Shown here piece by piece: positions 20,150 to 30,088 of a stretch of DNA of 30,810 bases (within the stretch, counting starts at the first letter, position 1; every line of letters starts with the position of its first letter). A program made the position numbers and the translations under genes. The notes beneath the pieces were generated by a model, which had not been told where the DNA came from, made no database searches, and saw nothing but the letters and a program-made list of their open reading frames with translations. Origin of the DNA: a virus (Duplodnaviria; Caudoviricetes); the IMG/VR virus record IMGVR_UViG_3300011338_000219, positions 1-30,810 of that record; one strand, 5' to 3'.

Positions 20150-21442
20150 CTACGCAAACGCATACTTTCCGAAATTCTTTTTTAATTCGTAGAACGCCCT
20201 CATCATAATTGCATCTGCAAAGTCGGGTGAAAGTCCGTGCCTCTTTTTCAAATCTTCTTTGTTGGTCACTCGCAACTTGCCATCACCATCCAACTTTTCA
20301 CGTCTTATCATCTCCAGTTCTTTGACAATGGTGTCCTTATGCGTTGATTCAAATGTGATAAGGTTGTTGGTTATCAATTCGCCAAGCTTAAAATAGCAAT
20401 CACTTTTGAGGTTGAGGTAGTTTTCACGGACTGCTTTTGATCCGTTCAAGAATCCTTTGCATTTAAGGTAATCAACTGCACCTCCGCCGATGCCATCTTC
20501 ATCACAAAGGACATTTGAAAGCTTCACACCGTGTGATTTCACCAATTGATTAATTGTGTCAACCACCTCATTAATTGGTTTATGTTTAAGGACAACAAAC
20601 TTTTCAGCGTGTAACCCATTCCACACAACTATAACTGTCCTATCATCTCCCATCCGTGCAATGTCAGCAGTTATGAATTTATCTGCTGATGAATTTGCAG
20701 GAGTGCGGAAACATCGCAGTAAGTCATCGTATTCATAAAGCCTATCCTTTGTCTCATCATAGTCCCAATCGCCTTCTAAAAGTCTTTTTCTATCCACTTC
20801 TGGAAGCAATAAAAGCGATTCTAAATAGACTGGAGATACGTGGGGATTGTCCGTTGGTAAAGCTTGGATGAATTCCCTATCTGACCTTATCAATCCACTA
20901 CGTTTAGCATCAAAGAACTCACGATAGAGCCATCCTTTGTGAGGATTGCAAGTGAGTAACCCCTTTGGTTTGTCGTTAATCAATTTATAGCGCACCCTTG
21001 ACGCCAAGATATTAACGCATTTCTCACTCACCTCCCCTGCTTCATCAACAAAATAATCAGTTAACTCAATTGAACCAAACCTCTGAAACTCGGGATCAGA
21101 TGGGGTATCAGCCAAGTCCATTAATATCGTTTGACTTCCATTAAACCAAGTGATAACGTGGTCTTGTCCATTGTACGTATAGTGTTTTCCTGCGATACGA
21201 TTGTGATGAGCGCAACGTTCAACGACGGTCTGCATAGTGGACAGGCGAAGCTTTTTTAATTCAGCACGGCCAATGAGGCCTCTTGTACCTGGATACTTCA
21301 ACCTCCTTTTTATTTGCCAATCGCATCCGAGGAATGACTTTCCTCCTCCAACACCTCCACCATATAACACCTGCTTAATATCAGAGTCAATGGCGAGAGC
21401 GTTGAGTGCTGCTATTTGCTTTTCGTGAAATTCAATTTTCAT
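20150..21442 (-). CDS. terL: Terminase large subunit
   Basis: Q motif (HEKQ), Walker A GGGVGGGKS, Walker B YFVDEA, LTCNP, and nuclease motifs ITADIARMGDD and SPDFADA. Confidence 0.92.
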   Translation of the reverse strand: MKIEFHEKQIAALNALAIDSDIKQVLYGGGVGGGKSFLGCDWQIKRRLKYPGTRGLIGRAELKKLRLSTMQTVVERCAHHNRIAGKHYTYNGQDHVITWFNGSQTILMDLADTPSDPEFQRFGSIELTDYFVDEAGEVSEKCVNILASRVRYKLINDKPKGLLTCNPHKGWLYREFFDAKRSGLIRSDREFIQALPTDNPHVSPVYLESLLLLPEVDRKRLLEGDWDYDETKDRLYEYDDLLRCFRTPANSSADKFITADIARMGDDRTVIVVWNGLHAEKFVVLKHKPINEVVDTINQLVKSHGVKLSNVLCDEDGIGGGAVDYLKCKGFLNGSKAVRENYLNLKSDCYFKLGELITNNLITFESTHKDTIVKELEMIRREKLDGDGKLRVTNKEDLKKRHGLSPDFADAIMMRAFYELKKNFGKYAFA

Positions 21443-25479: not shown

Positions 25480-25875
25480 GTGAAAGGTAAAATTCTACAT
25501 AGTTTGAAGCCAAGAGCGAAAAAACCATTCGCAGGGGAGGCAGGAGTTCAGGTTGCAATCATTCAATACATCAAAATGCAATATCCAAATGCGTTGTATT
25601 GCGCATCCGCAGGCGGTATGTTCACAAGTATGAAGCAAGCCATTAAGATGAAAGCAACTGGATACGTGAAAGGCTTTCCCGACCTTCAAATATGCGAACC
25701 CAATGGCAAGTACTTTGGCCTTTTTATTGAAGTCAAAACTGAAAAGGGTGTGGTTAGTAAGGAACAGAAGGAATGGATAAAGGAACTGAACCAAAGAGGT
25801 TATTATGCTACTTATGTAAAAGGTCTTGATGAGGCCATTAAAATTATAGATGAATATTTCAAAGGCACAATATGA
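25480..25875 (+). CDS. VRR-NUC (PD-(D/E)xK) nuclease, putative junction resolvase
   Basis: E..VQ, G..KGFPDL, LFIEVK and SKEQKEWI motifs. Confidence 0.85.
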   Translation: MKGKILHSLKPRAKKPFAGEAGVQVAIIQYIKMQYPNALYCASAGGMFTSMKQAIKMKATGYVKGFPDLQICEPNGKYFGLFIEVKTEKGVVSKEQKEWIKELNQRGYYATYVKGLDEAIKIIDEYFKGTI

Positions 25876-26332
25876 GCAGCATCGCAGATTAGCTATTAAT
25901 CTCTGCGGTGGGAATGTCTATGAGGCAGATGACCTTCTGCACGATACGCTACTATGCATCTTTGAAAACAAATCTACTATCAAGAACTCCGAGCATTACA
26001 TCAACCACGCACTTAAGATAGCGCATTGGAGTAATCGCAGTCACTACCACAATACTATCCGTAAGTTTAACCAAATGTCGGATGAACCAACTGAATCACA
26101 ACTGCGTGATTTTGAAAGTGTGGAGGTGTGGCTTGGGGATAGAATAACAAATGAACAGTTGGACATTTTGATTTCAAGACTGCCAATGTTGGAACGTGAG
26201 GTATTTTATTTATATGCCTTAAATGATTTCAGCTATCAGACCTTATCGGATGAAACTGGAATCCCAAAGAAGGCTCTTTATAACTTTGTTAAGTACGCAA
26301 AAAACGAAATAAGAAAAGCTATTGTAATATGA
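25850..26332 (+). CDS. ECF-type sigma-70-like factor
   Basis: Region 2-like EADDLLHDTLL; region 4-like RLPMLEREVF...SYQTLSDETGIP. Confidence 0.75.
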   Translation: MNISKAQYEQHRRLAINLCGGNVYEADDLLHDTLLCIFENKSTIKNSEHYINHALKIAHWSNRSHYHNTIRKFNQMSDEPTESQLRDFESVEVWLGDRITNEQLDILISRLPMLEREVFYLYALNDFSYQTLSDETGIPKKALYNFVKYAKNEIRKAIVI

Positions 26333-26826: not shown

Positions 26827-27020
26827 TGAACCTGCTTCATTTCTTTTTTACGTGTTATTTACTGACCGCCTTATTACTTATTGGACTGATGGCCGTGATG
26901 ATCCTAAGGCGAACCCTACGTTTTTCAGTTGAGAATATATTGGGTATGTTGTTCACCGCTTTTTGTTGGCCAGTTGTGTTAGCAATGACAATTATTGAAT
27001 TGTTCAAAACTAATGATTAA
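26823..27020 (+). CDS. Small two-TM membrane protein
   Basis: Two hydrophobic segments; ATGA-type overlap with the upstream gene. Confidence 0.55.
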   Translation: MMNLLHFFFTCYLLTALLLIGLMAVMILRRTLRFSVENILGMLFTAFCWPVVLAMTIIELFKTND

Positions 27021-27049
27021 CTTTTAAGGCAACCATTTAACTGAATCAC

Positions 27050-27057
27050 TATCTTTG
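27050..27057 (+). promoter_or_regulatory. Bacteroidota -7 element TATCTTTG
   Basis: TAnnTTTG at the start of the largest non-coding region; -33 element not evident. Confidence 0.5.
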
Positions 27058-27060
27058 TAG

Positions 27061-27312
27061 TGTTCAGAAGCTTTAGGTATTCCCCCTTTCATTTTAGCTC
27101 TGAACAGTTATAATGATTGGGGGATTCTCTTTTATGAATAAACACAAATTACTCTCCATTGCCAATGGGAGATGCAAAAGGCAAACTTGCGACACACCAA
27201 CGCTTGGATCAGGTAAATTCGCTATTCGCGAAATTGTTTGTTTTTCTTGGGGGGCTTTTTCTTTTCTTTCTTTTTCTTTTTTACCTTTTTTTCTTTTTCT
27301 TTCTTTTCTTTT
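27061..27312 (+). other. Structured non-coding region ending in a 58-nt polypyrimidine tract (candidate ncRNA, ori or pac region)
   Basis: Stem 27061-27072/27096-27106, TCCCCC/GGGGGA pairing, a second hairpin near 27153-27172, and 27255-27312 with a single purine. Confidence 0.4.
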
Positions 27313-27367
27313 GAATTATATTCTTAATTAAAATAAATTATTATCTTTACTAAATATTAAAAATAAT

Positions 27368-27375
27368 CTACTTAA
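27368..27375 (+). promoter_or_regulatory. CTACTTAA motif, candidate late promoter
   Basis: 4 nt upstream of the ATG at 27380. Confidence 0.4.
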
Positions 27376-27379
27376 TAAT

Positions 27380-27997
27380 ATGCAAAGAATATCAAAGATT
27401 GAATATGTGCCAATTTGGAAAGTAAAAAACAATCCAAATAATCCTCGTCTTGTCAAAGATGATAAGTTCAAAAAATTGGTCAAATCAATTACAGAGTTTC
27501 CCGATATGTTGGATAAACGCCCAATCATTGTCAATTCAGATATGATTGTATTGGGTGGTAATATGCGTCTCAAAGCTTGCAATGAAGCAGGATTAAAAGA
27601 AGTTCCCATAATAGTTGCAGAAGATTGGACAGAAGAACAACAACGTGCTTTTATTATCAAAGATAATCTTGGCTATGGTGAATGGGATTGGGATATGATT
27701 GCAAATGAATGGGATGAGGAGGAGTTAAATGAATGGGGTTTGGATATATGGCAACCTAATGATGAAATAAATTTAGATGATTTAAGTGATGATTTTAGTT
27801 TGCCTGAAGGTGATAGGCTACCATTTCAACAAATGACATTTAATCTCGCAGATGAACAAGCAATTCAAATAAAAAATGCAATAGAAGAAATTAAAGAAAC
27901 AGAAGAGTTTAAGTATTGCGAAACAATGGGAAATGAAAATTCCAATGGTAATGCTTTATATTTAATTATTATGCAATGGGCAGAGCAAAAGAAATAA
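27380..27997 (+). CDS. ParB/Srx N-terminal domain protein (DNA-modification associated)
   Basis: NPNNPR, RPIIVN..MIVLGGNMRLKAC motif; overlaps the mom-like gene. Confidence 0.8.
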   Translation: MQRISKIEYVPIWKVKNNPNNPRLVKDDKFKKLVKSITEFPDMLDKRPIIVNSDMIVLGGNMRLKACNEAGLKEVPIIVAEDWTEEQQRAFIIKDNLGYGEWDWDMIANEWDEEELNEWGLDIWQPNDEINLDDLSDDFSLPEGDRLPFQQMTFNLADEQAIQIKNAIEEIKETEEFKYCETMGNENSNGNALYLIIMQWAEQKK

Positions 27998-28677
27998 TTA
28001 TTAAAGTTATTCCAGCAAAAATTGCTAATGATTTTGTTTCAAATCATCATTATAGTAAATCATTTGTTCAAAATTCTAAATTACATTTTGGTTGTTTTTT
28101 AGATAATAAATTACACGGAGTTCTTTCATATGGAAATCCACAAGACAAAAGAAAAGTTATTGATTTAGTACAACCGTGCCAATGGAATGAAATGCTTGAA
28201 TTGAATAGAATGGCTTTTGATGATTATCTACCAAAAAATAGTGAAAGCAGATGCATATCAATTACTATTAAAATGATCAAAAAAAATGCACCACATATCA
28301 AATGGATTTTATCTTATTCTAATGCTTGTGTATGTGGAGATGGTACAATTTATAGAGCCAGTGGTTTTTATTTAACTAACATTTTAAAAAATCAATCATT
28401 AAGAGAGATAAATGGTAAATTGGTCGCAAAAAATTATACGAATAAAAAATACTATGACAAATCAAAAGGCATTAATTTATTTGATGGATCAAAAATTGTT
28501 GAGGGATTTCAATTAAGATATATTTATTTAATTGATCAAACTTGTAAAATAACAGTTCCAATTTTACCTTATAGTAAAATAAAAGAAATGAACGCATCTA
28601 TGTATAAAGGAAAAAAAATCCCTGCTAATGGCAAGGATTCTTTGAGCGATGCAGTCGATTCGAACGCTACCTCTTAA
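27976..28677 (+). CDS. Mom-family (GNAT-like) DNA adenine hypermodification enzyme
   Basis: ANDFVSNHHYS, LELNRMAF, PKNSESRCIS, WILSYS and GTIYRASGF motifs match phage Mu Mom-like proteins. Confidence 0.8.
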   Translation: MGRAKEIIIKVIPAKIANDFVSNHHYSKSFVQNSKLHFGCFLDNKLHGVLSYGNPQDKRKVIDLVQPCQWNEMLELNRMAFDDYLPKNSESRCISITIKMIKKNAPHIKWILSYSNACVCGDGTIYRASGFYLTNILKNQSLREINGKLVAKNYTNKKYYDKSKGINLFDGSKIVEGFQLRYIYLIDQTCKITVPILPYSKIKEMNASMYKGKKIPANGKDSLSDAVDSNATS

Positions 28678-28715
28678 CTGGATAGTTAAGTATGCTACCA
28701 TTACACTAACATCGC
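28645..28715 (-). tRNA. Non-canonical tRNA-Gly(TCC)-like RNA
   Basis: GCGATGT TA GTGT AATGGTA GCAT A CTTAAC TATCCA GTTAAG AGGT AGCG TTCGAAT CGACT GCATCGC T. It has a 7-bp acceptor stem, D arm with GG, TTCGAAT loop and U73. The anticodon loop and T-stem are aberrant, and CCA is not encoded (CAA follows). Confidence 0.8.
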
Positions 28716-28719
28716 AATG

Positions 28720-28749
28720 CAAATATAAATAAAAACAATGGAAAAACAA
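28720..28749 (-). promoter_or_regulatory. Bacteroidota sigma-A promoter TTG-N19-TATATTTG for the tRNA-like gene
   Basis: CAAATATA at 28720-28727 and CAA at 28747-28749 on the + strand; ends 4 nt before G1 of the tRNA. Confidence 0.75.
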
Positions 28750-28752
28750 TGG
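28731..28752 (+). repeat. 11-bp tandem duplication AAAAACAATGG x2
   Basis: Read directly; the second copy contains the TerS ATG and the antisense -33 element. Confidence 0.7.
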
Positions 28753-29108
28753 CTAAAGAAGATAATTTAAAGTCTTGGAAAAAAGGTGAGTCAGGCAATC
28801 CCAATGGCAGACCTCGCAAATATGTTTCATTGTTAAAAGAGCAGGGATACAAGTTGAGTGAGATAAATGATACCATCCAGGCAATGATGGCGATGGATAT
28901 GGATGAGTTAAAATCAGTTTGGGATAATCAACACGCAACCGTTTTAGAAAAGACCATTGCCAATGCGATGAGAAAAAGCATTGAGAAAGGATCATTGTAC
29001 TCAATTGAAACTTTATTAAGCAGGGTTTATGGTAATCCTAAACAAATGACGGAGTTAACTGGTGCAAACCAAGAACCATTACAAATAATAATATCTGATA
29101 AATTATGA
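28749..29108 (+). CDS. terS: Terminase small subunit-like protein (DUF5681-type)
   Basis: NLKSWKKGESGNPNGRP N-terminus, LLSRVYGNPKQ, and ELTG...PLQI C-terminus. Confidence 0.65.
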   Translation: MAKEDNLKSWKKGESGNPNGRPRKYVSLLKEQGYKLSEINDTIQAMMAMDMDELKSVWDNQHATVLEKTIANAMRKSIEKGSLYSIETLLSRVYGNPKQMTELTGANQEPLQIIISDKL

Positions 29109-29326
29109 AAGTCATATACGAATTCACAGAGGAAGATAACGAGGAGCTTCAAATGTTCCAACAATCACGTAAGTTATGGGTGGCATTTTGGGAACTGGAG
29201 AATGAGTTACGCAGTTGGGTGAAATACAACTCTCAAAACCTTTCATCAGATGAACTTGAAGGTGTGGATAAATTCCGTACACGCTTTTACGAGATAATAA
29301 ATGAGAATCAAATTAAATTAGATTAA
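29105..29326 (+). CDS. Hypothetical protein
   Basis: 73 aa, ATGA-coupled to terS. Confidence 0.65.
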   Translation: MKVIYEFTEEDNEELQMFQQSRKLWVAFWELENELRSWVKYNSQNLSSDELEGVDKFRTRFYEIINENQIKLD

Positions 29327-29487
29327 TGACAGAGCAAGAAATCAAGCACACCTACACGATGGCTATCCTATTCGGTATGTGGCTCAAAGAATCAGGGCAA
29401 AGAAAAAGACTTTCCAAAATGGATATTGTTGACCTATTTGATGAATGGATAAAGTTAATCACCAAAGATTTGGACAAAGATGAATAA
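29326..29487 (+). CDS. Hypothetical 53-aa protein
   Basis: MTEQEIKHTYTMAILFGMWL...DLDKDE*; TAATG-coupled and overlaps the next start. Not in the ORF track. Confidence 0.6.
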   Translation: MTEQEIKHTYTMAILFGMWLKESGQRKRLSKMDIVDLFDEWIKLITKDLDKDE

Positions 29488-30088
29488 GATAAAAGTATCA
29501 CTTGACTATTCAACCATAACTGTCAAACAATACGTTGACTTCATTTTGAATGAGGGCAATGAAGTAGGTCAAGTGTCCGCTATCCTCAACAAGCCAAAGG
29601 ACTTTGTAAGGCAGTTAGCACCTGATCAATTGCAAAATGCAATCAATGCATTTAAGTCAGTTATTGACGAGCCAAAAGCTAATAAGCAAAATCGATGGAA
29701 GGACTATGGATTTGTACCCGACATCAACGCTATCTCATTTGGTGAGTGGTTAGACCTGGATTCCAATTGTAAGGACTTTCCAAAGAACCTCACAAAGATA
29801 CTTGCCATCCTTTATAGACCAATATCAAATCAGTTAGGCAATAAGTATAGCATTGAACCTTACAACGCATCGCATCTGAAGAACGCTGATGAGTTCAATG
29901 AGATGCCGTTATCAATTGCCAATGGTGCATTGGTTTTTTTTTCGACTATCGAAAAAGAATTGGTGAACACTTCGCTTCAGTTTTTGGATTCACAAGTGAC
30001 GAAGAACTTGACGGAGGCGATGAAGATGATGGAGGAGGCATTGCAACAAGCGAACTTAGTTCAAAATACGGATGGTTTCACGTCATAG
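29480..30088 (+). CDS. Putative tail assembly chaperone (G-like, 0-frame product)
   Basis: Contains the slippery T9 run at 29934-29942 (GALVFF); ISFGEWLDLD and ILAILYRP motifs. Confidence 0.65.
   Translation: MNKIKVSLDYSTITVKQYVDFILNEGNEVGQVSAILNKPKDFVRQLAPDQLQNAINAFKSVIDEPKANKQNRWKDYGFVPDINAISFGEWLDLDSNCKDFPKNLTKILAILYRPISNQLGNKYSIEPYNASHLKNADEFNEMPLSIANGALVFFSTIEKELVNTSLQFLDSQVTKNLTEAMKMMEEALQQANLVQNTDGFTS

Follow-up and report, generated by a model that had tools for sequence, protein, structure and literature searches.

A non-canonical tRNA-Gly-like RNA, encoded beside a gene for a Mom-family DNA-modifying enzyme, was analysed in a 30,810-nucleotide (nt) stretch of Caudoviricetes DNA (IMG/VR record IMGVR_UViG_3300011338_000219, positions 1 to 30,810; the window). 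Searches made from the enzyme and from the RNA revealed that this RNA belongs to a real, conserved family tied to Mom. What the family keeps and loses, together with its likeness to known glycine carriers, indicates that the RNA is probably a chargeable, ribosome-excluded private glycyl donor for Mom. A wider proposal, that this is a widespread viral RNA class built as aminoacyl carriers for DNA chemistry, encoded with a ParB-Mom module and charged by the host, and that a Mom subfamily prefers or requires an RNA hidden from the elongation factor EF-Tu by a T-stem bulge, is evenly poised. The two genes concerned are as follows.

28645 to 28715, minus strand: tRNA-Gly-like gene, non-canonical, 71 nt (cloverleaf GCGATGT...GCATCGC-T; ARAGORN, Rfam and family model).
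27976 to 28677, plus strand: Mom-family GNAT DNA adenine glycyltransferase (predicted), 233 amino acids (PF25680, E = 9.7e-48, 162.9 bits against a cut-off of 27.1).

On the enzyme side, 164 loci from viral and metagenome contigs were assembled (four, plus the best 80 of 569 and the best 80 of 530 confirmed matches). These relatives are ∼48–86% identical and include duplicates; eight loci were too short and were dropped, leaving 156 informative loci. Mom ends were located by tblastn, and a pairing-based parser was free to pick either a bulged or a plain T-stem. An element was found beside Mom in all 156 informative loci, in 152 of them within 230 nt by the parser and in 4 by a covariance model. 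At a parser score of at least 43, elements were recovered downstream of Mom in 133 of 137 distinct regions, whereas none was recovered from 137 regions within Mom or from 137 shuffles, and chance is excluded by these controls. Among contigs assigned by record title to bacteria or metagenome-assembled genomes (MAGs) of Firmicutes, Bacteroidetes, Proteobacteria, Acidobacteria and Patescibacteria, 62 of 80 loci carried the element, which in two cases lies ∼2 kb upstream and is without the standard bulge.

The co-occurrence of RNA and Mom, which the initial annotation had proposed to test, also holds in the reverse direction. A pattern scan of viral contigs gave 37 matches, all with Mom adjacent. 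A second pattern comprised only the T-arm and the 3′ end of the acceptor and contained no anticodon information; in the first 120 of an estimated ∼620 matches, an open reading frame (ORF) matching the Mom profile was present within 500 nt in 115, at 1.3 kb in 1 and absent in 4, all 4 having at most 255 nt of upstream DNA. Given that the iterated Mom profile inflates E-values, the weaker ORFs were checked against Pfam, and 76 of 77 were Mom and one was another GNAT, the ORFs of 40 short loci (L402–L441) falling outside this check. A blastn search of cultured phages with two elements returned Psychrobacter phage Y8A only, plus ordinary tRNA-Ala-type matches. At one locus (L326:17-553) the ORF beside a bulged, antisense element encodes a GNAT other than Mom; in L399 an almost identical element adjoins Mom. 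Tandem Mom paralogues occur on the Firmicutes contigs L215, L226, L233, L247, L248 and L255, and also on L334 and L398. At the Firmicutes tandem loci the RNA, where found, lies ∼800 nt on, after the second Mom copy.

G1-C72 and C2-G71 occur in every one of 165 distinct elements, G3-C70 in 158, U73 in 164, C35 in 163 and C36 in 164. The second-pattern set, selected without the anticodon, has CC in 95 of 98 anticodon hairpins. G1-C72, C2-G71, U73, C35 and C36 constitute the bacterial glycine identity set described in PMC9976931. Elements with A73 rather than U73 were noted at L278:3743-3815 (a Patescibacteria MAG contig) and L120:3032-3104. One unpaired base follows the two outer T-stem pairs in 153 of the 165 (A in 144, U in 9); in a subgroup from Clostridia the bulged base is U and the variable loop is shortened. 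Other parts of the molecule, ones that function on the ribosome requires, are variable. The anticodon loop is 7 nt long in 86 elements and 8 nt in 78, with no constant base at positions 33 and 34, the GG of the D-loop is lost in 62 and the TTC of the T-loop in 68, and the D-arm is shortened in 27 of 106 reverse-search elements. Only 16 of the 165 are canonical apart from the bulge.

These structures are maintained by covariation. In an alignment of 110 sequences, 97.4% of cells are paired and 18 of 20 pairs have compensatory change; this was observed in 734 cells, and none of 500 shuffles was as high. The bulged T-stem is paired in 99.3% of cells, with compensatory changes in all four pairs, as compared with 62.4% for a plain stem of 5 base pairs (bp); these percentages are inflated by the pairing-based parser that picked the elements, a point to be set against them, and the same parser could also choose no bulge. 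In five prophage-bearing genomes, host tRNA-Gly genes were unbulged in 14 of 14 cases, UCC included. The bulge is conserved with covariation in the family, a comparison that the initial annotation had called for.

The RNA of the window has the features of this family. Its 71-nt cloverleaf (28715-28645) and the antisense overlap with the last 33 nt of mom (28645-28677) were found at the coordinates first assigned to them. The identity bases G1-C72, C2-G71, G3-C70, U73, C35 and C36 are present, with the anticodon UCC at 28682-28680; noted at first for this one sequence as determinants for glycyl-tRNA synthetase (GlyRS), they prove near-invariant in the 165 elements. The 4-bp T-stem with a bulged A, likewise reported earlier, is there (AG-CG / CG-A-CT, bulged A at 28655). 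For the anticodon arm, both of the alternatives originally drawn stand, namely 5 bp with an 8-nt loop (CUAUCCAG) or 6 bp with a 6-nt loop; the accompanying statement that A replaces U33 is one of two equal descriptions, the other being an A inserted between U33 and UCC. The uninterrupted 5-bp T-stem of an elongator tRNA, and its 7-nt anticodon loop with U33 beside the anticodon, are absent. CCA is not encoded, the gene reading U73-C-A-A.

A low-scoring or pseudogene call had been anticipated, and such a result was obtained. ARAGORN returned tRNA-??? with the 4-base anticodon atcc, and the Rfam tRNA family (RF00005) scored just above threshold, reaching 33.4 bits where the gathering score is 29 (E = 1.4e-4); no other Rfam family exceeded its gathering threshold in 27000–29500. 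The family covariance model, in which the window sequence is included, gave 73 bits and its sole match in the window. Folded alone, the RNA has a minimum-energy structure with the acceptor and anticodon stems and not the whole cloverleaf (z = −2.1), and the cloverleaf therefore rests on covariation. Relaxed ARAGORN (ps80) made 207 calls, distant and mostly spurious; at default, 55 loci of the set received a tRNA-Gly call close to Mom.

The identification of the ORF starting at 27976 as Mom was confirmed by Pfam, by PHROG (phrog_1384, E = 1.5e-50), by sequence similarity to the Mom protein of phage Mu (8bv8, E = 2.7e-20) and by fold, 8bv8 being the top Foldseek match (E = 5.9e-16) of a model of moderate quality (predicted local distance difference test score 62.8). 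As read from the sequence alignment, Mu H58, Y59, R111, S124 and Y159 correspond to H25, Y26, R78, S91 and Y126 of the window Mom, and the catalytic R111 and S124 are thus both retained.

Mu Mom moves glycine from Gly-tRNA-Gly to the N6 of adenine, producing 6-NcmdA and restriction resistance, and rejects Gly-tRNA-Ala (Silva et al. 2026, PMC13219725); the use of this donor, which the initial annotation had wanted verified, is in print. EF-Tu affinity is set by the pairs 49-65, 50-64 and 51-63 (PMC3239215), and the T-stem bulge lies within this segment in 153 of the 165 elements. In staphylococci, EF-Tu inhibits the GNAT-fold enzyme FmhB by sequestering Gly-tRNA, and non-proteogenic tRNA-Gly relieves the inhibition (PMC7826273). 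Given that the charging signals are fixed, that the EF-Tu contact appears kinked, that decoding features are free to vary and that an enzyme expected to consume Gly-tRNA is adjacent, the RNA is probably a dedicated donor.

In the proposed mechanism, host RNA polymerase would produce a ∼105-nt RNA extending from G1 (28715) to a terminator (∼28611), after which the 3′ end would be trimmed and CCA added. Host GlyRS would charge the RNA via G1-C72, C2-G71, U73, C35 and C36, and the unpaired base after 49-65 and 50-64 would distort the three T-stem pairs on which EF-Tu affinity depends. With ribosome fit no longer needed, the anticodon, D and T loops could drift. Mom would draw on the glycine pool of this RNA without competing with EF-Tu for host Gly-tRNA and would hand the glycine to adenine in phage DNA, and a ParB-like protein encoded upstream may load or activate Mom on the DNA. 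Continuous recharging of the RNA appears more plausible than the early stockpile of the initial annotation, which is unsupported, because a glycyl ester free of EF-Tu would be less protected; U73 may shield the ester from D-aminoacyl-tRNA deacylase (PMC9976931).

The following predicted transcription signals flank the RNA gene.

28720 to 28727, minus strand: −7 promoter element TATATTTG, Bacteroidetes-type (sequence compared with the published consensus).
28747 to 28749, minus strand: TTG, −33-like (sequence; N19 spacer to the −7 element).
28611 to 28643, minus strand: intrinsic terminator of the RNA, a hairpin followed by T8, within the final codons of mom (−14.4 kcal/mol).

The promoter TTG-N19-TATATTTG, described earlier as ending 4 nt before G1, is present at that distance, and by the published numbering (G at −5, PMC6847099) the predicted +1 falls on G1 (28715). 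The −33 element is described as weak in Flavobacterium (PMC6847099). This bipartite motif occurs 4 times on the two strands of the window together and at 0.095 per shuffled 1.9 kb. Within the family, 38 of 49 distinct antisense elements are preceded at 4–12 nt by TAnnTTTG (opposite strand, 0 of 49; downstream flank, 0 of 49); among sense elements it precedes 32 of 78. A sigma-70 scan gave 12 sites against 12.9 expected, this consensus being uninformative for this type of host. The terminator, which is absent from the initial annotation, recurs in relatives: a hairpin and T tract follow 37 of 49 antisense elements and 0 of 76 sense elements. The C-terminal codons of mom diverge (IPANGKDS in the window, ISLTERKA in L011 and L087) and the antisense terminator hairpin (28611-28643) is kept, which suggests selection on an RNA signal.

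Several observations weigh against the reading of this RNA as the private glycyl donor of Mom, or narrow its reach. The RNA is not required by the Mom family as a whole, since it is missing from the neighbourhood of Mu-type Moms and of many others. No element was found near Mom in 15 of 20 cultured-phage records, Mu included, in one plasmid Mom locus, in any of 21 Mu-like loci of one lineage, or in 18 of the 80 bacterial and MAG loci, 16 of these having at least 2.6 kb of downstream DNA. Mu Mom accepts all three Escherichia coli tRNA-Gly isoacceptors (PMC13219725). The effect of a T-stem bulge on EF-Tu lies outside the table of PMC3239215, which holds no bulge data. Nor is a tight pairing of one enzyme with one RNA visible, orientation types being scattered over the Mom tree. 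The Microbacterium phages Appa (L497:1860-1934) and Pickles13 (L493:1848-1922) have an annotated antisense tRNA-Gly(CCC) that is unbulged, with A8 and a G7-A66 mismatch, and the Appa T-stem sum of −0.6 predicts near-normal binding to EF-Tu, which counts against EF-Tu exclusion being universal.

The enzyme of the window also departs from Mu Mom at two positions, with Asn116 in place of D149 and Cys118 in place of R151. Replacement of D149 by alanine lowers the activity of Mu Mom (PMC13219725). Asp occupies this position in 123 of the 130 RNA-linked homologues with a residue there, and given the rarity of Asn among relatives, the activity of the window enzyme appears less sure than that of the Mom family. 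Asn, encoded at 28321-28323 in the window, is shared by a small sub-lineage with L001 and close proteins. R151 is missing from most homologues, 6 of 9 RNA-less Moms among them, and was discarded as a residue by which Moms with and without the RNA might be told apart.

Four cultured phages carry the element (Y8A, Appa, Pickles13 and BarretLemon), each with a ParB gene upstream. Y8A (OQ059336) has two tandem, bulged copies with a short D-arm (L282:2162-2226 and 2234-2299), in which CCA is encoded; they are unannotated and sit between mom and the terminase small subunit, and the Y8A paper, in its accessible text, reports no tRNA (PMC10434257). Arthrobacter phage BarretLemon has an unannotated, unbulged sense copy (L496:1798-1868) with ParB and Mom upstream. 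Its T-stem pairs C49-G65, G50-C64 and A51-U63 sum to +1.1 kcal/mol from the table in PMC3239215, weaker than the staphylococcal +0.6. From their sequences, the unbulged actinophage variants suggest other ways to the same role. In the Methylophilales phage Melnitz-2, a weak tRNA-Gly-like match (L489:192-260) lies in an annotated ORF ∼930 nt upstream of a Mom-like gene.

Five other explanations were weighed. The RNA could be a tRNA-mimicking regulator that, in charged or uncharged form, binds Mom and keeps a toxic activity in check, either up to the late phase of infection or in the lysogen. The strict linkage to mom would suit such a role, as would a housekeeping-type promoter able to act independently of the mom operon, the many copies in prophages and the restriction of Mom to late expression in Mu (PMC13219725). 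However, GlyRS reads C35 and C36 (PMC9976931), which are retained in 163 and 164 of the 165 elements and, as CC, in 95 of 98 hairpins of the set selected without them, whereas Mu Mom works with every isoacceptor and presumably recognises the acceptor end (PMC13219725). Selection for charging suits a substrate better than an inhibitor, and a regulator is considered unlikely.

Alternatively, the RNA might be a decoy or spare that guards the Gly-tRNA supply from host defences, such as acetylating GNAT toxins, toxSAS and anticodon nucleases, and helps Mom indirectly. TacT recognises U73 and G71 (PMC9976931), both of which are kept in the RNA; a toxSAS is described as selecting tRNA-Gly; and the variable anticodon loops could evade nucleases. 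Yet a general decoy need not sit ∼100 nt from mom, as nearly all informative reverse-search matches do, and the proposal overlaps with the donor role in the case where donor and protected RNA are one. As a separate explanation it appears quite unlikely.

A role in translation, as a supplementary tRNA-Gly(UCC) or a frameshifting tRNA with a 4-base (AUCC) anticodon, is very improbable. The 4-base anticodon called by ARAGORN, the 16 elements that are canonical except for the bulge and the frequency of GGA (121 of 372 Gly codons in 11 phage ORFs) would favour it. Set against these are the division of anticodon loops between 7 nt (86) and 8 nt (78), the variability of positions 33 and 34, the existence of D-arm-short forms (27 of 106, and Y8A) and the normal tRNA-Gly(UCC) of the hosts examined; moreover, decoding leaves the linkage to Mom unexplained.

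Control of mom expression in cis, by antisense RNA here and by an mRNA processing signal in relatives with a sense copy, is given similarly little credence. The predicted transcript spans the last 67 nt of mom, and the stop codon of mom coincides with the start of the element or comes after it for 45 of 49 antisense elements and 56 of 78 sense ones. Nevertheless, the same RNA occurs sense or antisense and 3′ or 5′ of mom, and glycine identity would be unnecessary for such a function. The orientation data bear directly on antisense regulation of mom, which the initial annotation had offered as a possibility. Sense copies account for 116 of the 165 distinct elements and antisense copies for 49, and the element is at the 5′ end of mom in 48 of 120 reverse-search loci. 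On a quickly built tree with 86 Moms and an outgroup, orientation required 21 changes, against a shuffled mean of 23.1, and the nearest relative of the window Mom (87% identical) carries a sense copy. Because both orientations occur, copies exist at the 5′ end and orientation is scattered on the Mom tree, antisense control is not the shared function of the RNA, and that earlier suggestion is not supported. A single inversion as the origin of the antisense copies is unsupported, the starred branches of the quick tree (87 rows) forcing at least 13 changes. In its behaviour across these sequences, the RNA resembles an exchangeable cassette.

That the element is a tRNA pseudogene in decay, or what remains of an attachment site, as the loss of canonical loop features might indicate, is barely credible in view of the 734 compensatory cells (0 of 500 shuffles as high), the conserved promoter and terminator, and a full-length form that occurs in either orientation and is unlike host tRNA-Gly.

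The genes adjoining mom and the RNA are as follows.

27380 to 27997, plus strand: ParB/Srx-like protein, 205 amino acids (Pfam ParB_N, E = 2e-7; PHROG 620).
28749 to 29108, plus strand: DUF5681 protein (PF18932, E = 1.1e-9).

The ParB-like ORF overlaps mom by 22 nt, and in the loci where the DNA preceding Mom extends for 1.5 kb, 111 of 111 encode a ParB-like homologue upstream of it. The ParB-like protein is likely to be a partner of the modifying enzyme. The DUF5681 gene is likely to be of the terminase small subunit type, the equivalent place in Psychrobacter phage Y8A being occupied by an annotated terminase small subunit. A DUF5681-related gene lies downstream of mom in 51 of 127 loci; it is a usual neighbour, and its membership in the system is putative.

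Portal, tape-measure and terminase-like genes are present elsewhere in the virus record (Pfam and PHROG searches). A weak Terminase_3 match, below cut-off, was observed at 20150-21442 on the minus strand, opposite to the structural genes and far from the DUF5681 gene. A long T-rich tract of low complexity (27245-27325) lies upstream of the ParB-like gene. A phage-encoded sigma-70 region 4 protein (25850-26332), upstream of the ParB-Mom module, could drive late expression of parB and mom.

Mu Mom (Silva et al. 2026, PMC13219725; 8bv8; PF25680) resembles the window Mom in family, in fold and in the equivalents of H58, Y59, R111, S124 and Y159, and differs from it at D149 and R151, where the window enzyme has Asn and Cys. 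In Mu, by contrast, the donor is supplied by host tRNAs, neither a tRNA-like gene nor ParB lies beside mom, and the main text of the Mu Mom paper (PMC13219725) does not mention a phage-encoded tRNA. The NP1–3 tRNA-Gly species of Staphylococcus, donors for FmhB, FemA and FemB, likewise keep glycine identity, have a T-stem that binds EF-Tu weakly and serve a tRNA-dependent transferase (PMC7826273). They are chromosomal, however, and are described as making cell-wall peptides, with a choice of pairs (A49-U65, U50-A64 and A51-U63) in place of a bulge. The phage RNA is also altered at 49-65, 50-64 and 51-63, but by a different device, the bulge. It stands outside the staphylococcal lineage and the service of Fem enzymes; it resides on mobile elements, and its neighbour in phages and prophages is the DNA-modifying enzyme Mom, for which it would be a donor.

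The ssrA islands of Dehalococcoides (McMurdie et al. 2011, PMC3146451) have parB, mom and a conserved 76-bp tRNA-Gly-like “pseudo-tRNA” with the anticodon DCC in one module. As reported in the accessible text of that paper, the locus was found in one genus and one fosmid, the element lies within the opening 150 bp of mom and no function is proposed. It is probably the 5′-located form recovered in the reverse search. ParB-dependent phage T-dioxygenases (bioRxiv 10.1101/2025.08.14.668559) offer a parallel in which a phage DNA-modifying enzyme is described as needing a co-encoded ParB-like protein; the enzyme and its chemistry are unrelated to Mom, and ParB dependence of the window Mom is putative. 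The literature search turned up no description of a donor tRNA for Mom encoded by a phage, nor of the T-stem bulge, most subscription papers lying outside the search.

Mom has only recently been shown to use charged tRNA, and its competition with EF-Tu was left open; a dedicated tRNA that evades EF-Tu would provide an answer. The donor reading is directly testable in cultured phages (Y8A, Appa and BarretLemon), and activity may go unnoticed where Mom homologues are screened without the RNA and the ParB partner. The bulge is a candidate device for keeping aminoacyl carriers out of translation. On the wider proposal, Mom, ParB and the RNA would constitute a three-part modification system and the bulge a natural design for translation-orthogonal aminoacyl donors. 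If the donor reading is correct, many phage tRNA-Gly genes that are called “pseudo” or missed would acquire a function. Non-proteinogenic tRNAs would then extend from cell-wall synthesis to the modification of viral DNA.

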